Counted from the stretch's first letter, positions 1 to 11,887 are shown. The stretch is DNA of 64,000 nucleotides from Escherichia coli (GCF_003019035.1 NZ_CP027447.1); one strand, 5' to 3'. Made by a program: numbers and translations. Notes: generated by a model not told the origin, from the sequence alone.

Positions 1-922
1 TCACCGTAACCATTGAACTGAACGGTACATTGGCGGCGGCATCCATCATTGCTTTACAGGCAGCCATCGACAGATTGAGGAAGAAGTGATCGTTACCGGT
101 GATAAATGCCACGACGCGCTGGATATGTTCCTGTGGAAGAGAGCAGGCCAGCAATGCCGGGAGCAGGCGCTTAATCAGCAAACCGGTAGCGGCAGCATTG
201 CGGTTATGAACTTCATCCCCCATATGCAGCGCCTGCGCCATTAATGGCTTGAGTTCCAGCTCGCCGTGTTGTGCGATTGCTGCTTTCATTGCCGGCGCCA
301 GTTCATCGCGCATCCAGGCCAGACGATTGAGAACTTCATCGTTATTGGCGCCAAAACGGAGAACCTTACCCAGACCTTCATTGAAATTGCTAAAAGTACG
401 ATGGCCGTTGGTTTTGTTTTCTACCACCCATAACGGCATCGACGGGCTGATGATGCCTGCCATTGGGCCAACCGCGTGATAATGATGACAAGGGGCAAGG
501 TCGATTTCGCCTGCGTTTATTTGGTTTTCAGCGTCTTGCTGGCTGGTGGCCCAACCTTCGTACAGCATGGCACCAATAATCGCCCCTTTTACCGGACCAC
601 ACATCTCTTCCCAGGCAATCGGCGGGCCAGAGTGCAAAATACGTTTTTGTTCAGCCATTGCTGGAATGGCCTCTTTAGCGAGCATGACATCCACCAGCAC
701 GGGCTGTGCTTCGAGATAACGTGTCATGGCGATTTGGTTGGCATTTTCTACCAGGGGATGACGTAGCAACGATGCCAGATCCAATCCAGCGTCAATATCG
801 CCTTGTGCTGGTGGCTGCCAGTTGAGTGCAATTGCGCTTCCCCCGGCATGTTGAATATTGTCAGCAAAACTGTGTAGTCCCGCGTTCACGACCTTCAAAG
901 GCTGATTAAATAAGGTATTCAT
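1..922 (-). CDS. DUF1116-family protein (YlbE/YahG-like), partial; 3-prime end lies beyond the window start
   Basis: Minus-strand ATG at 920-922 overlaps the FdrA-like stop (ATGA); manual translation runs to the window edge (MNTLFNQPLKVVNAGLHSFADNIQHAGG...). Not in the ORF track because no in-window stop. Family call from memory of the yahEFG/fdrA-ylbEF gene order. Confidence 0.55.
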   Translation of the reverse strand, partial: MNTLFNQPLKVVNAGLHSFADNIQHAGGSAIALNWQPPAQGDIDAGLDLASLLRHPLVENANQIAMTRYLEAQPVLVDVMLAKEAIPAMAEQKRILHSGPPIAWEEMCGPVKGAIIGAMLYEGWATSQQDAENQINAGEIDLAPCHHYHAVGPMAGIISPSMPLWVVENKTNGHRTFSNFNEGLGKVLRFGANNDEVLNRLAWMRDELAPAMKAAIAQHGELELKPLMAQALHMGDEVHNRNAAATGLLIKRLLPALLACSLPQEHIQRVVAFITGNDHFFLNLSMAACKAMMDAAANVPFSSMVTV

Positions 923-2478
923 GCGTTTAGCCCCTTTTTCTGCAACTGAGTCTGTGCAACGGTGCTGGCCCATAACGCCGCCTGTGCATTGCTGCTGGCG
1001 ATGATGACCCCTGCATTTTGTAGTGCGCTTATCTGCTGACTGCGTATTTGCGGATCAGCTTCCGTTCCGCAAACGTGCGCAATCAGCAACGGTGCGTTAT
1101 TCATGTCGATGTGTGAAAGTTGGTCCAGTAATTCGCTGGCAGGCGTCGTGGAAGCGCCATAACCAAGTACCAGGTCGAATAACACGACGGCAGTGTGTGA
1201 GTCGTTGAGTTCGTTGAGCAGACGTTGATTGCGCAGAGTCGGGTCGATCATTGGATGCGGTTTGCCACGGGTGAAATCATCGTCGCCCATATCGATCAAC
1301 GTGTGATCTTCGCTTTGCCAGATATTTGCCAGAGCACGATTACCCGCAACTGGCGTATTGGAGGCTGCGCTGAATCCCTTTTGTTGGCAGATAAGTTGCG
1401 CTTCGTAGCAGAAGGTTCCTCCGGCGAAAACACCGCGTATCGCCTGGCGATGGGCTGGCAGGCGCTGGCAGGCGTTTTGTAACATTGTGAGATCGTCGCA
1501 GGAAATTTCGGTCTCGATAGTCGGAATTGGTTGATCATTCAGTAACGCCACGGCGATATTTGCGGCGCTGGCAAGTGTGGTGGCGGCAGTGATATTGGGA
1601 CGTGCCAGATCATGCGGATTCGCACCGAGGAAATTCACCACCACGGGTTTTCCACAAGCCTCGGCACGCTCCAGAATAGTCCGGGCAACGATCGGTGAAG
1701 GCGGTTTTGAAATAAGCACAATCACGCGAGTTTCATCGTCTTGCGCCAGCGCATCTAAAGCGAAGAGCATCGATATTCCACCAATCTCTTCACTGAGATC
1801 ATGTCCGCCTGTTCCCAACGCCTGAGAAATACCCGCTCCGAGCTGGTCGATTCGGCAAGTCACTTCCTGTAGCCCGGTGCCTGACGCGCCAATAACACCA
1901 ATTGCTCCGCGTTTCACCACATTAGCGAAGCCTAACGGAATGCCGTTAACAATGGCGGTTCCACAGTCAGGTCCCATTACGATGCGCTGACGTTCTCGGG
2001 CAAGCGTTTTGATGGATTTTTCCTGCACGATACTGACGTTATCGCTGAACATCATCACGTTCATTCCGAGGTTTAACGCTTTAATTGCTTCGGCGGCGGC
2101 GTAGTCTCCCGGTACAGAAATGAGTGCCAGGTTGGCTTCGGGCTCGGCTTCCAGTGCCATTTCCAGGCTGACCTTTTCCGGTGATTTAATGCCACTATCC
2201 GTTTCATCATCGGGTTTGCTGGTCAGACGTTGCTGGGCCAGTACCAGTGCTTCATTGCAAATATCTTCTTCACCCATGACTGCAATCACTAAATCATTGG
2301 GACTGGCGTTGATTTCGTTACCCAGACCCGCATCGCGCAATTGTTCGAGATTATTGGGCGTTCCCATGACGACCGAGGCCTGTTGAATACCGGGCAACTT
2401 GCTGATTTGTGCGGAAATCTGCATCAGAGAAACTGAGTCCTGATAAAGATTACTGAAAACTTTATATTTAACTTTCAT
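919..2478 (-). CDS. FdrA/YahF-like protein (succinyl-CoA synthetase alpha-like CoA-binding family), 519 aa
   Basis: ORF track 519 aa; Gly-rich CoA-binding motifs (GVIGASGTG, MGPDCGT); length and neighbours match FdrA/YahF paralogs. Confidence 0.8.
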   Translation of the reverse strand: MKVKYKVFSNLYQDSVSLMQISAQISKLPGIQQASVVMGTPNNLEQLRDAGLGNEINASPNDLVIAVMGEEDICNEALVLAQQRLTSKPDDETDSGIKSPEKVSLEMALEAEPEANLALISVPGDYAAAEAIKALNLGMNVMMFSDNVSIVQEKSIKTLARERQRIVMGPDCGTAIVNGIPLGFANVVKRGAIGVIGASGTGLQEVTCRIDQLGAGISQALGTGGHDLSEEIGGISMLFALDALAQDDETRVIVLISKPPSPIVARTILERAEACGKPVVVNFLGANPHDLARPNITAATTLASAANIAVALLNDQPIPTIETEISCDDLTMLQNACQRLPAHRQAIRGVFAGGTFCYEAQLICQQKGFSAASNTPVAGNRALANIWQSEDHTLIDMGDDDFTRGKPHPMIDPTLRNQRLLNELNDSHTAVVLFDLVLGYGASTTPASELLDQLSHIDMNNAPLLIAHVCGTEADPQIRSQQISALQNAGVIIASSNAQAALWASTVAQTQLQKKGLNA

Positions 2479-2572
2479 GCTGTTACGCCTGTTTCATTCC
2501 GCCCGATAGCAAAATTCGGGCAAAGTATCCCCGTGTAGCCCCATAAACGGGCTACGGGAGAAAAGGTTGAAA

Positions 2573-3433
2573 TCAATTCATGGTGTTCAGGGTTCGAAAG
2601 CCATGCAGCATTCCTGCAAGGCAATCTACTCCTGACGTTGCGCCAAATTGCATGACCTGTTCTGCACAGGATGCGATTGTCATTGCCGATGCGCTCCCAA
2701 CCAGTTGTGCGAGTAACTGGCAAATCGGTTCTGAAAAATGTCCCTGAAGCGCACGCTCCAGATAATGACGACTGATATCCGTGGTGTTGTGCGCATGTTG
2801 ATCAATTGCCTGCTGCAACCGGTATTGATGATCGGCAAGTGGTGCAGGGAGTTGCCATAACCAGAGCGCTGCCAGATAGCCCAACAAATAGTCATCTCCA
2901 TCGGGCGTTAAGCCTTTACCAAAGCCGATCAGTTGTGGCACCTGGCGTTCCAGCGCATCTGGATGCTCCATAATCGCTAATCCCTGGTGCGTGAGACTAT
3001 CCGGCAGGTGCAATGTGCTTTGAACGTTATGTTCCAGACAAAATAAAAGCCGTTGCGATGCCATCGTTGGGTAGTGCTGGAAAACCAAAGGGAATGCCTC
3101 AAGTGTCAGCATTCCCCCCACAAATGGCGACTGCCAGAGCGTTGCGTTATCGAGCGCCACACAAAATCGAGGTGTCCGCAGTAAGCCTGGGGTTAACTGA
3201 ATGGGATCTGAATGGGCAATCTCTCTTCGCCAGTCCCAACATTCAGGTAGCCAGACTCTGGCAGCATCAGGGAGATTCAGATACGTTTGCGCACACAACA
3301 GAGTGATGAATGTTCCCGCGTCTGAATACAGATTTACCGCATGTTTAAAAGCGCTATGCAGACGTAAATCTTGCGTTTCATTCTGCGGGAAAATATATCC
3401 CAACGACGATGCGCAAAGCGTAACCTGTACCAT
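2573..3433 (-). CDS. DUF2877-like protein (YahE/YlbF-like), 286 aa
   Basis: ORF track 286 aa; sits immediately upstream of the FdrA-like gene as yahE does before yahF; GLTPDGDD motif. Family assignment from memory, unverified. Confidence 0.5.
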   Translation of the reverse strand: MVQVTLCASSLGYIFPQNETQDLRLHSAFKHAVNLYSDAGTFITLLCAQTYLNLPDAARVWLPECWDWRREIAHSDPIQLTPGLLRTPRFCVALDNATLWQSPFVGGMLTLEAFPLVFQHYPTMASQRLLFCLEHNVQSTLHLPDSLTHQGLAIMEHPDALERQVPQLIGFGKGLTPDGDDYLLGYLAALWLWQLPAPLADHQYRLQQAIDQHAHNTTDISRHYLERALQGHFSEPICQLLAQLVGSASAMTIASCAEQVMQFGATSGVDCLAGMLHGFRTLNTMN

Positions 3434-3438
3434 CGGCG

Positions 3439-4107
3439 TTAGCCTTCCAGACCTGCAATAATGGCTTTGGAATCAGTAACCCAACCGAAAATGGCACCTT
3501 GTGCTTTGATCATCTCGAGGGCGTATTTCTGGAATTCCGGGAAATAGGAGCCGACACAATCTTCCGGGATAATGCATTCATAGCCACGATCATTTGCTTC
3601 GCGCACGGTGGTGGTTACGCAAACTTCGGTTGTAACACCACAAACTATCAGCGTCTTGATACCGTGGTTTTGCAAAATCAGATGTAAGTCGGTTTGATAA
3701 AACGCGCCTTTGCCAGGCTTATCAATCACCGGTTCGCCTGCCACCGGGTACAGTTCAGGAATGATGTCATGACCTGCTTCACCTCTGACCAGAATGCGTC
3801 CCATCGGTCCTGGTTCACCAATAAAGGTTTTTCCGCCGCGCGTCAGTTTGGCTGGCGGGCAGTCGCTTAAGTCTGCACGATGGCCTTCACGAGTATGAAT
3901 AACCATAATTCCTTTTTGACGTGCGGCTGCCAGCACCTCTGTACATGGTGCGATAGCCGTGCGTACCAGTGAAACATCATTGCCCAGTGCCTCACCGAAG
4001 CCCCCTGCTTCGACAAAGTCACGCTGCATGTCGATCATGACCAGTGCAGTTGTGCGCGGATCAAAAGGTAATTCAAAGGGTTGAGCCTGAAAAATGGATT
4101 GCGTCAT
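3439..4107 (-). CDS. Isochorismatase-family cysteine hydrolase, 222 aa
   Basis: ORF track 222 aa; N-terminal LVMIDMQRDF motif typical of the isochorismatase/CSHase fold; 5-nt gap to the next gene suggests an operon. Confidence 0.75.
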   Translation of the reverse strand: MTQSIFQAQPFELPFDPRTTALVMIDMQRDFVEAGGFGEALGNDVSLVRTAIAPCTEVLAAARQKGIMVIHTREGHRADLSDCPPAKLTRGGKTFIGEPGPMGRILVRGEAGHDIIPELYPVAGEPVIDKPGKGAFYQTDLHLILQNHGIKTLIVCGVTTEVCVTTTVREANDRGYECIIPEDCVGSYFPEFQKYALEMIKAQGAIFGWVTDSKAIIAGLEG

Positions 4108-4363
4108 GGTAAATCTCCTGTCTGATGTTTAAACGATCCAGTTGTTCTGAGAACGAGTATTCAGGAGAAAAGCGGCACAAAACAGGAAAAAAGTTTGCCG
4201 CACAGCAACGAAATTTTTGCATTCAGCAGGTGGTGTGATGACGAATGTGAAGGGAGTCAAAGAGTGGCATACAGCAACAAATTTTTTGATGCTGTATGGT
4301 TTTGAGATTAAAAAAATCGTTGAAATTGTGTGAGCTTAATCATCAGATTTAGCGACTATGGCG

Positions 4364-5173
4364 TTACTTTTTAACACCATACTGTGTAAACCATTCCAAC
4401 ATTCGCTGCCAGCCGTCTTTCGCAGACTCGGCATGATAGCTCGGACGATAATCGGCGTTGAACGCATGCCCTGCATCCGGGTAGACGATAATCTCTGCTT
4501 TCGCGTTTGCTGCCCGCAGCGCCTGGCGCATCGTTTCCACGCTCTCTTGCGGAATGCTGTTATCCTGGCCGCCATATAAGCCGAGAACCGGCGCGTTAAG
4601 ATCGGTTGCGATATCAACAGGTTGTTTCGGTGAATTCAGCGACTTATCGCCCGTCAGTTTGCCGTACCACGCCACTGCGGCTTTTAGCTGTGGATTATGC
4701 GCGGCATACAGCCAGGTGATACGTCCACCCCAGCAGAATCCGGTGATCATTAAACGATGAACATCGCCGCCGTTGCGGGAAGCCCAACTGGCGACATGAT
4801 CGAGATCGGCCAGCACCTGCGAGTCAGGCACTTTTGCTACCAGACCGCTAAGCAACGTGGGGATATCGGCAAAATCATTCGGATCGCCTTCGCGGAAGTA
4901 AAGTTCAGGTGCGATAGCCAGATACCCCTCCAGCGCCAGACGGCGACAAATATCGCGGATATGTTCATGCACGCCAAAAATTTCCTGCACTACAATGACC
5001 ACTGGCAGTGGGCCATCGCTTTGCTTTGGTCTGGCATGGTAAGCAGGCATGTTATCCCCTTGTGAAGGGATAGAGGTGAAGCCCGCCACAATCGCGTCGT
5101 CCGGAGTCTGAACGATGGTCGAAGCGAGAGGCGATGCAGCAGGTGCAAATCCAGATTGTTGTGTTGTTGCCAT
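4364..5173 (-). CDS. ysgA: Dienelactone hydrolase family protein
   Basis: ORF track 291 aa begins at an upstream GTG; the internal Met (MATTQQSG...) follows an RBS (GGAGAA) and gives about 269 aa; GFCWGG nucleophile motif. Confidence 0.75.
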   Translation of the reverse strand: MATTQQSGFAPAASPLASTIVQTPDDAIVAGFTSIPSQGDNMPAYHARPKQSDGPLPVVIVVQEIFGVHEHIRDICRRLALEGYLAIAPELYFREGDPNDFADIPTLLSGLVAKVPDSQVLADLDHVASWASRNGGDVHRLMITGFCWGGRITWLYAAHNPQLKAAVAWYGKLTGDKSLNSPKQPVDIATDLNAPVLGLYGGQDNSIPQESVETMRQALRAANAKAEIIVYPDAGHAFNADYRPSYHAESAKDGWQRMLEWFTQYGVKK

Positions 5174-6232: not shown

Positions 6233-7723
6233 TTATTGACGCCGTAAACGCATTATTTTGCGGATTATTGGCGTCAGTAGCGTAAAGGCTGCCAGAGTCA
6301 GCAATGCCAGAGTGATCGGTCGGGTATACAGAAAGTCGAGTGACCCACCAGAAAGCGACAGCGCACGGCGAAAATTACTTTCCGCCATTGGCCCCATAAT
6401 CAATGCCAGCACTACGGGTGACGCCGGATACCCCCCTTTTTGCATGAAATAGCCCACCACGCCTGCAATCAGCATAATGCCAACATCAAAAAGGCTATTG
6501 TTCAACGCATAAGTCCCGACCACACAAAGTGCGAGGATCATCGGTGTGAGAATATTGCCGGGAATTTTCACCACATTACCGATGACTTTCAAAGAGAGCA
6601 GTCCAAGAACTAGTAGCATGAAGTAACAGAAGATCATGCCGACAAACAGTGTATAAACCATATCGCCGTGGTCGGTAAACATCAGCGGGCCTGGTTGCAT
6701 TCCCTGTAACGTTAACGCGCCCAGCATGATGGCAGTTACCGCATCGCCAGGGATCCCCAGCGTCAGCATAGGTAACAATGCGCCACCGGTGCAGCCATTC
6801 GCGCCTGCCTCACAGGAGGCCACAGCTTTAATTTCACCCTTACCAAAGTTTTCTGGTGTCTTACTGAAACGACGAGTTTCGTTATAGGCAACAAAAGCTG
6901 CAATATCCGCCCCCGCACCGGGGATCATGCCGATAAAAACCCCTAATCCTGATGAGCGCAAAATGGTTAATGCAATGCGGCGTAGTGTCTGCCAGGGCAG
7001 TAACAGACTGCCGATAGCCACCTTCGCCCCCTGACGAATTTGCTGGTTTTGCTCCATAGAGCGGAATGCTTCTGAAGCAGCAAATAAACCAATCATCACC
7101 GGGATAAATGGCACATTCATCAGCTCCACAAATCCACCTGTAAACCGTGGAAAACCGCCCATTGGATCAAGGCCTATCGTTGCGATCAGCAATCCGCCAA
7201 CCCCGGCAATCAGCCCTTTAATCAGTGACTCACCGGAAATACTGGCAATAATGCTCAGTCCGAAGGTTGCCAGGGCGAAGGACTCCGAGGCACTAAATTT
7301 CAGCGCCCAACTGGCAAGTACCGGAGAGAGAAACATCAGCACGATAATGCTGAGCGTTCCGCCACTAAAGGAAGAGAACGTGGCGGCACTCAATGCCAGC
7401 CCTGCTTTTCCCTGTTTCGTCAGCTCATAACCATCAATAGCGGTGGCTGCGGCGGCAGGCGTTCCGGGAATTTTGAGCAAAATTGCGGTGATAGAACCAC
7501 CGTAGACGCCACCAAAAAAGACGCCGCAAATCATCAACAAGCCAGAAACAGGCTCCATGCCGTAGGTGAAAGGCAGCAAAATCGCCACACCCATGGTCGC
7601 TGTCAGACCAGGCAAAGCGCCAATCACAATACCCAGCATCACCCCAAAAGTGGCAAACAGCAGCGCCTGAGGATTATTGAGTAATGTCGAAAAACCCTGA
7701 GTTAAAAGTTCACTTTCAAACAT
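6233..7723 (-). CDS. Tripartite tricarboxylate transporter large permease, TctA family, 496 aa
   Basis: ORF track 496 aa; highly hydrophobic, Gly/Ala-rich polytopic membrane protein of TctA size and composition. Confidence 0.8.
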   Translation of the reverse strand: MFESELLTQGFSTLLNNPQALLFATFGVMLGIVIGALPGLTATMGVAILLPFTYGMEPVSGLLMICGVFFGGVYGGSITAILLKIPGTPAAAATAIDGYELTKQGKAGLALSAATFSSFSGGTLSIIVLMFLSPVLASWALKFSASESFALATFGLSIIASISGESLIKGLIAGVGGLLIATIGLDPMGGFPRFTGGFVELMNVPFIPVMIGLFAASEAFRSMEQNQQIRQGAKVAIGSLLLPWQTLRRIALTILRSSGLGVFIGMIPGAGADIAAFVAYNETRRFSKTPENFGKGEIKAVASCEAGANGCTGGALLPMLTLGIPGDAVTAIMLGALTLQGMQPGPLMFTDHGDMVYTLFVGMIFCYFMLLVLGLLSLKVIGNVVKIPGNILTPMILALCVVGTYALNNSLFDVGIMLIAGVVGYFMQKGGYPASPVVLALIMGPMAESNFRRALSLSGGSLDFLYTRPITLALLTLAAFTLLTPIIRKIMRLRRQ

Positions 7724-7735
7724 TGCTGGCCCCTG

Positions 7736-8242
7736 TTATTCGAAAAATGTGCCGACAGGCAATGGCACCTGTAACGCTTCGACAAACAGCAACCAGAGGA
7801 TTGCCGTTAACAGCAGCGCAATACCCGGTGTGAGTACCCATCGCCTGTAGCCCATCAACGTCATAATGACGATGAGGAAAACAGGAGTAGTAATGAGATA
7901 ACCGCAGTAGCCCATCGTCACAATATAAAACGCGGTTGCCGCAATTCCTGTTGCCGTTTTCCTGAATGCCGGTTTTTCCTGTGCGTTGGCGCAAGAGGCT
8001 GGTTTTGCCTGCAAAAGATCGCGTATCACCAGCAAGACAGCGAGCACAATCAGGGCACAGGCATAGAAGGTAGGGAAGGCACTTGCACCGGGATCCGTTT
8101 CAATGGCAGTTGCTGGAAAATCAGCGGCATTAATCATCACCGCGCCAGCAACCACACAAAGTAACAGCGCCACCACCATCGTTGATGAAAGGCGCTTGCG
8201 GTGCGGTACGGCGAGTTGAGCAACAGACTGTTTTGTGTTCAT
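7736..8242 (-). CDS. Tripartite tricarboxylate transporter small permease, TctB family, about 168 aa
   Basis: Small hydrophobic protein between the TctC-like and TctA-like genes; start taken at the ATG one codon inside the track start (TTG). Confidence 0.65.
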   Translation of the reverse strand: MNTKQSVAQLAVPHRKRLSSTMVVALLLCVVAGAVMINAADFPATAIETDPGASAFPTFYACALIVLAVLLVIRDLLQAKPASCANAQEKPAFRKTATGIAATAFYIVTMGYCGYLITTPVFLIVIMTLMGYRRWVLTPGIALLLTAILWLLFVEALQVPLPVGTFFE

Positions 8243-8258
8243 CAACCGTACCTCAGGT

Positions 8259-9233
8259 TTATTTTTTCAGGCCCAGGCGAGTCAGCAACTCGTCAAAGTA
8301 CTTTTCCTGTTCGCTGATTTGGGTCTGGAAGCTGGCAGCGTCAAGCCATGCATAGTTGAGATTCAACTTTTGCAGTGCATCCTGGAATGCAGGCTCTTCA
8401 GCCGTCTCTTTTGCTGCCTTTGCCAGAACATCCACCACATCCTGCGGCGTTTTTTGCGACACAATCAGGCCGCGCCAGGTGCCGATGGAGAGATCAACGC
8501 CTTTCTCTTTTAACGTCGGGACGTCAGGCATGGTTTTCATTCGCTCATCCGCCATCACTACCAGTGTCTTCAGCTTGCCGCCTTTCACATGGTTGATAAC
8601 TTCACCTGGGCTTACGGAAACCGCTTCAATATGCCCGCCTAACAGACCTGTAATGGCAGGAGCTGCGCCGTCATACGGGACATGGGAAAACTTTGCGCTC
8701 GTTTTGTCTTCCAGTGCAGCTGCCGCCAGATGCCAGATAGCTCCGGTGCCTGAGTTACCAATGCGTACTTTTCCGGGATTCGCTTTGGCGTAAGTCATAA
8801 ATTCTTCATAGCTATTCCACGGCGCATCGGCACGGACGGTGATAGCCGCCGGATCCGCATTCAGACGGGCAATGGGTTTAAAGTCGCTGGTTTTAAAACG
8901 CACCATTCCGAGGCTGGGAAGGGTGGTCAGTTCAACCGTGCCTAAACCAATTTTGTAACCGTTAGGGCGGGCAGCGGCGATTTCACTCAGGCCGATAGCG
9001 CCGCCACCGCCAGGTTTATTGATAACTCCGATGCTGACGGGCAAATGGTTTTTGGCGGCATCAGCAAAGGCACGGGCCACCAGGTCCGTACCGCCTCCGG
9101 CAGCGTAGGGAACGATTAGCTCGATCTGTTTGGTTGGGTAGGAGGCAGCCTGTACAGGCGCAGTGCTGAGGGCAGCGCCTGCAATAAGTACTATCGCAGC
9201 TATTTTTTTCGGTAAGGTAAGATGTTTTATCAT
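8259..9233 (-). CDS. Periplasmic substrate-binding protein, TctC/Bug family, 324 aa
   Basis: Signal peptide (MIKHLTLPKKIAAIVLIAGAALSTAPVQAAS); size and position upstream of tctB/tctA; RBS AAGGA. Confidence 0.8.
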   Translation of the reverse strand: MIKHLTLPKKIAAIVLIAGAALSTAPVQAASYPTKQIELIVPYAAGGGTDLVARAFADAAKNHLPVSIGVINKPGGGGAIGLSEIAAARPNGYKIGLGTVELTTLPSLGMVRFKTSDFKPIARLNADPAAITVRADAPWNSYEEFMTYAKANPGKVRIGNSGTGAIWHLAAAALEDKTSAKFSHVPYDGAAPAITGLLGGHIEAVSVSPGEVINHVKGGKLKTLVVMADERMKTMPDVPTLKEKGVDLSIGTWRGLIVSQKTPQDVVDVLAKAAKETAEEPAFQDALQKLNLNYAWLDAASFQTQISEQEKYFDELLTRLGLKK

Positions 9234-9256
9234 AGTTTTATATCCTTATTTATCAG

Positions 9257-9886
9257 TTATTTGCTATTTAAATTATTCCATGCATTCATAAACAGCACTG
9301 CATTTTCATAGACCTGCTCTGGCGTCATGCCGGGGCGATATAGCGCAGAACCGAGGCCAAAACCGTTTGCGCCGTGGCTCAGATAACGCGCCATTGTTTC
9401 CGGTGTGATACCGCCAACCGGTAACATCGGAACGGATTGCGGAATAACCGCACGCCAGGCTTTGGTGACTTCTGGCGTAATTTGTTCGGCCGGGAACAGC
9501 TTGATGGCATTGGCGCCATGTTCAATGGCAGCAAAAGCTTCGGTGGGCGTAGCGACGCCTGGCGCGCAATACATACCCAGCGCACGGGCGCGACGGATCA
9601 CCGCAGTATCGCAATGCGGCATCACGATAATCTGGCCCCCAGCCTCTTTAACCGCAACCACCTGCTCTACCGAAAGCACAGTTCCGGCTCCGACCAGGCA
9701 GTCCTTAGGCAGGGCGTCGCGCAGTAAACTGATACTTTGCAACGCCTCCGGCGAGTTCATAGGAATCTCAATCAGGCGGAATCCGGCGGCGTACAGTTTT
9801 TCACCGATGGCGACAATCTCATCCGGTTTCACGCCGCGTAAAATGGCGACTAACCCGGTTTTTTGCAAAAGCGTCTTAAATGGCAT
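9257..9886 (-). CDS. 2-dehydro-3-deoxy-6-phosphogalactonate aldolase-like (DgoA/KDPGal aldolase family), about 209 aa
   Basis: Core LVAILRG...EIPMNSP...GAGTVL...GVATPTEAF...FPA...VGGI resembles E. coli DgoA from memory; start set at MPFKTLL (ATG 9884-9886, RBS AGGGAA), overlapping the kinase stop by 11 nt. Confidence 0.8.
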   Translation of the reverse strand: MPFKTLLQKTGLVAILRGVKPDEIVAIGEKLYAAGFRLIEIPMNSPEALQSISLLRDALPKDCLVGAGTVLSVEQVVAVKEAGGQIIVMPHCDTAVIRRARALGMYCAPGVATPTEAFAAIEHGANAIKLFPAEQITPEVTKAWRAVIPQSVPMLPVGGITPETMARYLSHGANGFGLGSALYRPGMTPEQVYENAVLFMNAWNNLNSK

Positions 9887-10880
9887 GGGTATATTCCCTG
9901 GCGTTGGTGGACAGTAACCCGGCAGCGTGGGCGATTCGCCATAATCCCTGTTCAGTGGCATTAGGAATGGCGTGTATCTGTCTGTCGGGAAAAACGTGGC
10001 TGAATGCTTGTGAATAGCGGCTGTTCAGATTTGCGCTACCGATTAAGGCGATCGGTGTTGTGGCGGGTAAATCACGTAGCAAACTGGATGCCAGACCACA
10101 TAATTCATGGCCTATCAGTAATCCGGAAAGGTAATCCCCCTGCGAGGACGACGTAAGATTACTGGTCAGCAGGCGCGAACGGGTCGAAAACAGCGTCGAT
10201 AATAATCCGGTCTGATGATGCTCTTGTGCTGCTGTCAGCCCGTGGGTGAAGGCATCCCAGTGCGGTTCATCTCCAGGATGCATGGTGGCACCGAGAATCG
10301 AATGGCGGGATAAAACATCAAATAACTCGCCCGTCATAAAGGTTCGGAAATCGGTAATGGTGTTGTTTTCAACTACTGCCCATTTCGCATGTGTGCCGGG
10401 TAAGCCTATCAGCACTGGCATACCCTGATGGATCGCGTTTTGCAGGGCCGGTTCCATCGAGATAGCACCGAAGATTTGTGTCTCTTCGCCACGCATCACT
10501 TCGGGCATTTCACCTTCTTTAATCACGCCAGGAATGATGTGCAGCATTGTCTGCTGCTGGTGGATAACAGGCGTCAACTGCTTCGCCAGACCCTCGAGAG
10601 TGACCGGGCAAGGTAAATAAGCTGCTGGTTGCCACCCTTGCGCACTGCCGAGCATGCCGCAAGCCAGTACCGGGCATGGGGTTTGTGCCAGCCAGTCGCC
10701 GCAGACACGTAAAAACGTATCGTGGAAAGCGTCCTCACGTGTTGCTGCCTGGGAGGGTAATTTCATGATCCCCCAGGGGAATTCACGTTTTTCTTGTGGA
10801 TTTGGTGATTCGCCAAAACGCCATGCCCGAAGCGATGACGTTCCCCAGTCCAGGGCAATAAATGAGGGTGCTCCCGGCAT
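9876..10880 (-). CDS. 2-dehydro-3-deoxygalactonokinase-like (DgoK family), 334 aa
   Basis: N-terminal IALDWGTSSLRAW and internal VMRGEETQIFG / GTHAKW motifs parallel E. coli DgoK; RBS AAGGAAA. Confidence 0.8.
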   Translation of the reverse strand: MPGAPSFIALDWGTSSLRAWRFGESPNPQEKREFPWGIMKLPSQAATREDAFHDTFLRVCGDWLAQTPCPVLACGMLGSAQGWQPAAYLPCPVTLEGLAKQLTPVIHQQQTMLHIIPGVIKEGEMPEVMRGEETQIFGAISMEPALQNAIHQGMPVLIGLPGTHAKWAVVENNTITDFRTFMTGELFDVLSRHSILGATMHPGDEPHWDAFTHGLTAAQEHHQTGLLSTLFSTRSRLLTSNLTSSSQGDYLSGLLIGHELCGLASSLLRDLPATTPIALIGSANLNSRYSQAFSHVFPDRQIHAIPNATEQGLWRIAHAAGLLSTNAREYTHAI

Positions 10881-10903
10881 TAGTCGTTTCCTTTAATCAT
10901 GGT

Positions 10904-11671
10904 TTATTTATCTTTGCGGACGTGCTTACCCCAGCCCAGTTCAGCGGATATCTCTTCTGCACAGGATTTGACGTAAGGTGCCAGTTCTTCCAGACGCGCC
11001 AGCGACATATACGTGGTGGTACTGGCGACAGAAATAGCCGCCACAATTTCATCCCGGGCGTTGTAAACCGGCGCTGCAACGCAACGGATAGTCGGCTCGT
11101 TCTCTTCCAGATCAAAAGCAAAACCACTGGCGGCATAACGACGCATGTTCTGAATAAATGCGCCCAGTTTTGTTTCATCACCACAGGTCTTAAACAGCGT
11201 GCGCCACTCTTCTTCTGTTCGGTTGAGGATCAATGCCTTGCCGATGCCGGTGATTGCCAGTGGCATGCGATGGCCTGGGCGTGAGCGCATTTCCAGCCCG
11301 CGCTGACTGTTGATCTTCTCCAGATACAGCACTTCGTCGCCTTCAACGATCCCCAGATGCACGGTGTCCAGGGTGTAACGGGCAAGGCGTTGCAAAACGG
11401 GCTGGGCAATTTCGTACAGCGAGGTGCTTTCCAGTGCTCTGGCACCGAATTCGATCAGTTTGGCACCCAGTTGGTAGCCCTGCGTTGGGACATGGCGCAG
11501 GTAGCGTTGTTCCACCAGAACGGTGACTAAACGATGGGTTGTGCTCCGGGTCGTGCCGGTGAACTCGCCGATACTTTTTAGGTCATGGCAGCCGTTATAA
11601 ACAGCATTAAGAACCGCCAGTCCACGTAATAACGTTTGTGCGCCTGCGGTGGTTGAAGAGGTTTCTGCCAT
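10904..11671 (-). CDS. IclR-family transcriptional regulator, about 255 aa
   Basis: N-terminal HTH region (LLRGLAVLNAV...) and C-terminal effector domain typical of IclR; start set at MAETSS (RBS AGGAGA) rather than the longer track ORF. Confidence 0.8.
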   Translation of the reverse strand: MAETSSTTAGAQTLLRGLAVLNAVYNGCHDLKSIGEFTGTTRSTTHRLVTVLVEQRYLRHVPTQGYQLGAKLIEFGARALESTSLYEIAQPVLQRLARYTLDTVHLGIVEGDEVLYLEKINSQRGLEMRSRPGHRMPLAITGIGKALILNRTEEEWRTLFKTCGDETKLGAFIQNMRRYAASGFAFDLEENEPTIRCVAAPVYNARDEIVAAISVASTTTYMSLARLEELAPYVKSCAEEISAELGWGKHVRKDK

Positions 11672-11887
11672 ACGTTTCTCCTGATGATATTGCTGAAGTG
11701 TTCCACATAATGACGTGGGGAAAAGGTGATATATCCCACAATATAAACTCCATCTCATATTGTGGGATAAAATAATGAAAATTAACGATCGTTTTGCGTA
11801 GCGCCTCGCAGGAAACTTCTTTCAAACTGGACGTTTGTACAGCACAATTCTATTTTGTGCGGGTAAGTTGTTGCGTCAGGAGGCGTT

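Follow-up and report, generated by a model that had tools for sequence, protein, structure and literature searches.

The metE–ysgA interval of some Escherichia coli genomes carries genes related to allFGH of strain K-12 next to a gene for a cysteine hydrolase, which raises the question of which nitrogen compound this combination would act on. We analysed a 64,000-nucleotide stretch of E. coli DNA (NZ_CP027447.1; hereafter the window), which is 100% identical to strain SCU-301, and used a stretch of the SCU-301 genome (L001) beyond the window edge. Window positions 1–4107 hold four minus-strand open reading frames (ORFs), none of them disrupted and the leftmost cut by the window start. They form the right (front) half of an eight-gene cassette at L001 10933–19121, in the order TrtA-type hydrolase, AllH-like, AllF-like and AllG-like proteins (together, the triad), carbamate kinase, stand-alone AH_C protein, NCS1 permease and LysR regulator. 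Triuret is a nitrogen-rich product of uric acid oxidation, and we see an even chance that this mobile cassette would break it down via carbamoyl phosphate, yielding ammonia and ATP, with every catalytic step predicted from family assignments and gene associations. Public genomes annotate the locus, and the literature has touched on it briefly; what is new is that an AllFGH-type module is tied to a triuret-type hydrolase, with a specific substrate prediction.

A third triad of the AllFGH type in E. coli and its hydrolase

In K-12, AllFGH (fdrA-ylbE-ylbF) is an oxamic transcarbamylase that forms carbamoyl phosphate and shares an operon with the catabolic carbamate kinase AllK (PMC11326118). This enzyme type was identified only in 2024, in experiments that bore out the oxamate carbamoyltransferase role which an earlier note on this DNA mentioned as proposed for fdrA/ylbE/ylbF, and oxalurate is its sole known substrate. 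The cassette has the three same families adjacent to one another, followed by a carbamate kinase, and its presumed chemistry would be alike: an N-carbamoyl amide would be phosphorolysed to carbamoyl phosphate, from which ATP would be made. Searches with hidden Markov models place the three proteins in PF11392, PF06545 and NF004760 (above its cut-off), in agreement with the DUF2877, DUF1116 and FdrA-like assignments of the earlier note, whose four minus-strand genes, coordinates and spacings proved exact on our ORF check. Beyond the window edge the AllG-like gene is complete (L001 14498–15922, 474 aa; PF06545 E 5e-99 on the full protein). Orthologues of the AllF-like protein have the Pfam domains HMA_AllF_N, CoA_binding and Ligase_CoA, and the AllH-like protein appears in recent PGAP annotation as ‘oxamate carbamoyltransferase subunit AllH family protein’. 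Leftward extension also bears out the supposition that the operon continues past the window start, possibly into a carbamate kinase: just past the left edge, the AllG-like gene ends in an overlap with an arcC-type gene for a carbamate kinase (TIGR00746, 366.2 bits; cut-off 358.25). With AllF, adjacent AllG and AllH and an operon-linked carbamate kinase all present, the triad is, at family level, a predicted three-subunit carbamoyltransferase of the AllFGH type.

The triad is 40%, 49% and 33% identical to K-12 AllF, AllG and AllH, respectively (for AllH over the C-terminal part only), and 42%, 46% and 26% identical to YahF, YahG and YahE, so that its distance to either set is about that between AllFGH and YahEFG. 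When the family is clustered at 50% identity, AllG finds 3518 representatives with E values up to 0.001. We placed 92 of the best-scoring ones in a neighbour-joining tree; it has dozens of deep clades, and each of the three E. coli copies belongs to a different one. The triad is thus paralogous to both K-12 sets, a third and roughly equidistant copy with its own clade; it is not orthologous to AllFGH (b0518–b0520), which is no nearer to it than YahEFG is. An origin by recent duplication of either K-12 set was rejected, given the equally low identities to the two. The mentions of DUF1116 in PMC7439467 and PMC6306219 concern K-12 ylbE or an unidentified ORF of strain J53 and not this island.

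The H-F-G gene order agrees, as the earlier note held, with yahE-yahF-yahG, whereas fdrA-ylbE-ylbF, to which the note also likened it, runs F-G-H; with the kinase included, the cassette reads H-F-G-K and the allFGH operon F-G-H-K. The partners differ as well, being a TrtA-type hydrolase, an AH_C protein and an NCS1 permease instead of allantoin genes, and no all gene of the allantoin context was found in the insert. The uncharacterised YahEFG-YahI-YahJ cluster of K-12 shares with the cassette the H-F-G order, the carbamate kinase that follows it, and an amidohydrolase and a LysR regulator alongside; YahI and the island kinase are 49% identical, YahB and the island LysR protein 34%. However, the two hydrolases belong to different superfamilies, YahJ being a metal-dependent amidohydrolase and the island enzyme a cysteine hydrolase, and the Yah cluster lacks AH_C and the NCS1 permease and belongs to a different clade.

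Residues 6–42 of the AllG-like protein (window 796–907) match the C-terminal tail of the FdrA/AllF model (positions 508–544 of 555), and, compared with the island AllG-like protein and YahG, K-12 AllG is missing about the first 55 residues. A segment of about 40 residues therefore stands at the N terminus of G in the cassette instead of at the C terminus of F as in AllFGH, which indicates that the F/G gene boundary has moved between paralogues. Among the AllG-family representatives, many proteins of about 1000 aa are AllF–AllG fusions, which fits both subunits acting as one enzyme; two of these fusions (P0123 and P0128) have no informative neighbours on their short contigs.

The best solved relative of the hydrolase is Herbaspirillum TrtA (6XIX; 270 bits, 58.7% identity), followed by BiuH (6AZO; 237 bits, 53.5%) and RutB (105 bits, 33%), and its close homologues carry PF00857, the isochorismatase family of Pfam. 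An Asp-Lys-Cys catalytic triad together with Phe29, Lys132 and Gln202 is conserved in the island hydrolase and in 18 of 18 orthologues. TrtA and BiuH are told apart by six positions, at which TrtA has F35, N41, A134, E160, Y187 and I205 and BiuH has Y, Y, S, D, T and V; most swaps from the TrtA to the BiuH residue abolish triuret activity, A134S being harmless (PMC7948467). All six residues are of the TrtA type in the island hydrolase and, again, in all 18 orthologues, which come from distant genera. A neighbour-joining tree rooted on RutB unites the island-type enzymes with TrtA and excludes BiuH in 97 of 100 bootstraps, and the score against the BiuH model falls short of its cut-off (NF050097, 279.8 against 370). 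Orthologues at 79–88% identity occur in Enterobacterales, Burkholderiales, Neisseriales, Xanthomonadales, Vibrionales, Pasteurellales and Moraxellaceae. We predict that the hydrolase is of the TrtA type and, from its signature, that it converts triuret to 1-carboxybiuret.

Distribution of the cassette and partner enzymes of the triad

The insert is found in 1497 of 5426 complete E. coli genomes (28%), including B/BL21 and C, and is absent from K-12. The operon is thus present in reference strains, one half of what the earlier note had named as a possible refutation; as to the other half, its function has not been characterised there. Conjugative plasmids carry the complete cassette too: it occurs at about 95% identity on 82 of them (78 from E. 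coli and 4 from Klebsiella), including pEC5931-1 (L093). This distribution suggests selection in host-associated niches with oxidised purine products. On one IncFIA/FIB/FIC plasmid, the cassette lies near bacteriocin-immunity and iron-transport genes.

The same gene order is kept in Silvimonas, Caballeronia and Dyella; it is rearranged in Vibrio, and the Psychrobacter cassette has no visible LysR gene. Flanking sequences are unrelated in all five of these sampled genomes. Since the cassette recurs with unrelated flanks and on conjugative plasmids, it behaves as one functional unit.

To describe the partners of this triad clade more widely, we scanned about 100,000 genomes, one per species, with an alignment of the AllG clade and obtained 80 loci with AllG identities from 99% to 58%, of which 47 had at least 6 kb on both sides. 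Among these 47 loci, a TrtA/BiuH-family hydrolase and a carbamate kinase were each present in 43, an AH_C domain in 33 and a cyanuric acid hydrolase (AtzD) in 1. Across all 80 loci, 59 hydrolases were scored, and 55 of them had the TrtA signature (43 exactly, 12 with A134S as the only difference); the other four are one cropped ORF and three BiuH-type proteins, the BiuH signature being confined to additional genes in three Nitrospira loci. When the ORFs in these neighbourhoods were clustered without supervision, antisense ORFs of conserved genes predominated, and only transporters and regulators were added.

Other first enzymes accompany the triad at a few loci. In the most informative case, a plasmid contig of Klebsiella michiganensis DSM 25444 (L019 4618–20480), genes for H, F, G, kinase and LysR proteins close to those of E. 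coli (AllG 79%, LysR 66% identical) are combined with a cyanuric acid amidohydrolase (538 bits; cut-off 360) in place of the TrtA-type hydrolase and an NCS2 (xanthine-permease-like) transporter in place of the NCS1 permease, in the order cyanuric acid amidohydrolase, transporter, AllH, AllF, AllG, carbamate kinase, LysR. Beyond this operon lie IS5 and IS6 transposases, a truncated lipoamide-dehydrogenase-like gene and, about 7 kb away, a full allophanate hydrolase. The whole looks like an s-triazine catabolic region assembled by insertion sequences, in which the triad would replace BiuH or AtzEG. A marine alphaproteobacterial locus also combines the triad with cyanuric acid hydrolase, and in Defluviicoccus metagenome-assembled genome (MAG) loci and one metagenome contig a barbiturase-like enzyme adjoins AllF–AllG.

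A 2025 metagenome study reported biuH and trtA adjoining allFGHK in comammox Nitrospira and ammonia-oxidising archaea, and took the latter genes as a neighbouring oxalurate pathway; the comammox clusters with the triad lack trtB, the gene for carboxybiuret decarboxylase (PMC12625717). These clusters resemble the E. coli cassette in the co-location of cysteine hydrolases with the triad and kinase, and our scan recovered the Nitrospira AllG at 62–64% identity; they differ from it in also having BiuH and an ABC transporter. The missing trtB fits a triad that acts on carboxybiuret. One Nitrospira MAG (L061 6412–19077) encodes, in order, GntR, AllH, AllF, AllG, carbamate kinase, ABC permeases, BiuH, an ABC ATPase, a TrtA-like hydrolase and AH_C as a stand-alone protein, which shares 59% identity with its E. 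coli counterpart. Since AH_C follows the TrtA-like gene here, the small protein accompanies TrtA-type genes outside Proteobacteria too.

A predicted phosphorolytic route and the rival substrates

TrtA and cyanuric acid hydrolase are unrelated enzymes. Barbiturase, for its part, yields ureidomalonate, an isosteric carbon analogue of carboxybiuret, and both compounds are N-carbamoyl amides with a terminal carboxylate, one atom longer than oxalurate. TrtA and AtzD share the product 1-carboxybiuret (PMC7948467). Since unrelated hydrolases with this common product accompany the triad, the simplest reading is that the triad clade phosphorolyses 1-carboxybiuret.

On this basis, we propose the following model. 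The permease would import a small planar ureide, most likely triuret, and the hydrolase, going by its TrtA signature, would take off one terminal amide to release NH3 and 1-carboxybiuret. The H-F-G complex, modelled on AllFGH acting on oxalurate and thus on a carboxylated N-acylurea, would then move the terminal carbamoyl group of carboxybiuret to phosphate, giving carbamoyl phosphate and allophanate, as paralogy and gene neighbourhoods suggest. The carbamate kinase would produce ATP and carbamate, the latter decaying to NH3 and CO2. In the weakest step of the model, the allophanate or N-carboxy compound would go through the H-F-G reaction once more or be broken down with the help of AH_C; where an allophanate hydrolase is present, that enzyme would finish the allophanate. 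The LysR protein, related to PunR and AllS, would turn the operon on. On balance, a ureide would supply nitrogen and at least one ATP, and neither urease nor allophanate hydrolase would be needed.

The Herbaspirillum TrtA-TrtB-BiuH-AtzF and cyanuric acid pathways (PMC7948467) share with the cassette a first enzyme with the TrtA signature and an allophanate-hydrolase-derived domain, and 1-carboxybiuret and allophanate would be expected as intermediates in both. In contrast to those pathways, the cassette lacks TrtB, BiuH, AtzEG/H and the AtzF amidase domain and has an AllFGH-type complex and a kinase instead; therefore the route would be phosphorolytic and energy-conserving and not purely hydrolytic. 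That such a third, energy-conserving route exists for triuret and cyanuric acid, with an AllFGH-type complex phosphorolysing carboxybiuret at a yield of ATP per carbamoyl unit, is a possibility we advance tentatively, rating it less likely than not. The comparisons support the suggestion in the earlier note of a carbamoyl-transfer module that would act on a nitrogen compound other than oxalurate, and they make the cassette a second well-defined clade of the AllFGH type with a strong substrate prediction. If the route is real, it would explain how carboxybiuret is handled in organisms without TrtB, BiuH, AtzEG or AtzF, and urease-negative gut, urinary and avian E. coli, together with carriers of IncF plasmids, could feed on triuret arising where uric acid meets peroxynitrite in inflamed tissue. 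Since BL21 carries the cassette and K-12 does not, a direct test would be cheap.

Several observations weigh against carboxybiuret from triuret as the substrate. (i) The island-type hydrolases form their own sister clade (82 of 100 bootstraps) at 57–59% identity to TrtA; given 59% identity and a separate clade, their specificity may differ from that of TrtA. (ii) Triuret dissolves poorly, and how much of it gut or urine contains is uncertain. (iii) No allophanate enzyme is evident in the cassette. Allophanate hydrolase has an amidase-signature N-domain fused to AH_C; the 129-aa cassette protein is AH_C alone (PF21986, E 2e-41), matching only profile positions 440–562 of the 563 in the allophanate hydrolase model, and there is no amidase gene among the eight genes of the insert. 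At the position aligned to the ‘GAH’ motif of allophanate hydrolase this protein reads ‘GTL’, like gamma-glutamylcyclotransferase-like proteins. (iv) Three of the 47 full-flank loci have neither a TrtA/BiuH-family hydrolase nor AtzD; a full allophanate hydrolase is present in them, and a permease in two. The annotation of the 80 loci consists of simple ORF-plus-BLAST calls. (v) The barbiturase contexts show that the substrate is not uniform across the clade. (vi) Our literature search found no functional study of this cassette. (vii) 1-carboxybiuret is unstable in vitro and decarboxylates spontaneously (PMC7948467), and biuret or allophanate could therefore be the real substrate of the triad.

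This last point leads to an alternative that we consider unlikely, though the likeliest of the rivals, in which carboxybiuret first loses CO2, spontaneously or via AH_C, and the triad then phosphorolyses either biuret, to carbamoyl phosphate and urea, or allophanate only, to carbamoyl phosphate and carbamate. The C-domain of allophanate hydrolase was reportedly proposed by Fan et al. in 2013 to be an N-carboxycarbamate decarboxylase, and the retention of AH_C in the cassette argues in the same direction as the instability of carboxybiuret. So does the full allophanate hydrolase that adjoins the F, G and carbamate kinase genes at three loci (L060, L065 and L077). However, the biuret route would leave urea, of no use to urease-negative E. 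coli, and the route through allophanate only would require a BiuH or AtzEG/AtzH step, neither of which the cassette has. Moreover, oxalurate, the known substrate of the family, bears a carboxylate, as does carboxybiuret, whereas biuret does not.

The membership of all three subunits in the AllF, AllG and AllH families raises a different question, whether the triad is a second oxamate carbamoyltransferase, a back-up or alternative oxalurate branch of purine and allantoin breakdown in which the hydrolase would feed in oxalurate from an amide precursor. The LysR regulator, whose best NCBIfam matches are PunR and AllS, and the PGAP name of the AllH-like protein speak for such a role. Set against this are the 33–49% identity to AllFGH, no nearer than that to YahEFG, and the separate clade; there are also no allantoin genes nearby, and the clade is constantly accompanied by a hydrolase with the TrtA signature or by AtzD and not by AllD or AllC. 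We therefore judge a second oxalurate enzyme improbable.

A third proposal comes from a 2026 study that lists the island as ‘GR29 metE..ysgA’ and guessed, without experiments, at pyrimidine nitrogen scavenging (PMC12928451). It would have a CodB-like permease import cytosine or uracil and a RutB-like hydrolase release carbamate; in the account of strain BEN2908, the hydrolase is 32% identical to RutB and the permease 26.5% identical to CodB (PMC12928451). Cytosine permease is indeed the best NCBIfam match of the permease; yet this match reaches 147 against a CodB cut-off of 326, the hydrolase reaches 105 bits with RutB but 270 with TrtA, and 111.9 on the RutB equivalog model (TIGR03614; cut-off 377.95), and the insert holds no homologue of RutA, the type of ring-opening monooxygenase in question, which together leave pyrimidine scavenging very improbable.

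Insert boundaries, features and neighbouring genes

Homology with K-12 breaks off where metE ends and is regained at the 3′ end of ysgA (L001 19366, equal to window 4366); therefore the eight genes constitute an 8.54-kb insert in place of about 50 bp of K-12 intergenic sequence, with its right end at window position 4365. The comparison of the K-12 metE–ysgA interval that the earlier note had proposed accordingly finds the interval without the eight genes. The note had placed the genes upstream of ysgA; by direction of transcription, they are downstream of it. The features in the window are collected in Table 1.

Table 1. Window coordinates of the cassette genes, their junctions and the non-coding elements
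Feature	Window positions	Strand	Details
AllG-family subunit (formerly DUF1116), first 307 codons	1–922	minus	open frame through window start
AllF-like/AllG-like junction	919–922		4-nt ATGA start/stop overlap
AllF/FdrA-like subunit (succinyl-CoA-synthetase-alpha-like)	919–2478	minus	519 aa; NCBIfam NF004760 496.5 bits, cut-off 433
AllH-like/AllF-like gap	2479–2572		94 nt
AllH-family subunit (formerly DUF2877)	2573–3433	minus	286 aa; Pfam PF11392, E 5.4e-27, residues 168–278
Hydrolase/AllH-like gap	3434–3438		5 nt
Predicted TrtA-type isochorismatase-like cysteine hydrolase, first cassette gene	3439–4107	minus	222 aa
Leader/promoter region and insert right end	4108–4365	minus	K-12 homology from 4366
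Second, related palindrome copy	4201–4230		
Perfect palindrome upstream of hydrolase start	4268–4298		31 nt; CATACAGCATCAAAAAATTTGTTGCTGTATG (minus-strand reading)

The stand-alone AH_C protein is 100% identical to PDB 5C5Z, a solved structure of unknown function that would gain a role if the model holds. We take 5C5Z to be c4763 of strain CFT073, which is probably a carrier strain as well. The crystal-structure work on it is cited in PMC7558591.

Upstream of the hydrolase gene, the perfect palindrome and its related copy are candidate operator sites for the LysR protein. A looser search found a related CAGC..AAAAATTTTG..GCTG element upstream of the Edwardsiella orthologue, and only there; an exact search found the E. 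coli palindrome in no other genus. The gap between the AllH-like and AllF-like genes folds as two hairpins, with a minimum free energy of −32.9 kcal/mol and, compared with shuffled sequences, a z-score of −2.56, and may be a processing or stabilising element within the operon. An Rfam scan of the whole insert for riboswitches gave only two chance-level matches, both far below gathering scores, and in a scan for consensus promoters and terminators the sites were no more numerous than in shuffled sequence.

The window holds a second accessory block at about 6233–11700, between udp and rmuC, where in K-12 rmuC directly follows udp. It encodes a tripartite tricarboxylate transporter of the TctA/TctB/Bug type and an IclR regulator, and its annotations include a 2-dehydro-3-deoxygalactonokinase and a 2-dehydro-3-deoxy-6-phosphogalactonate aldolase.

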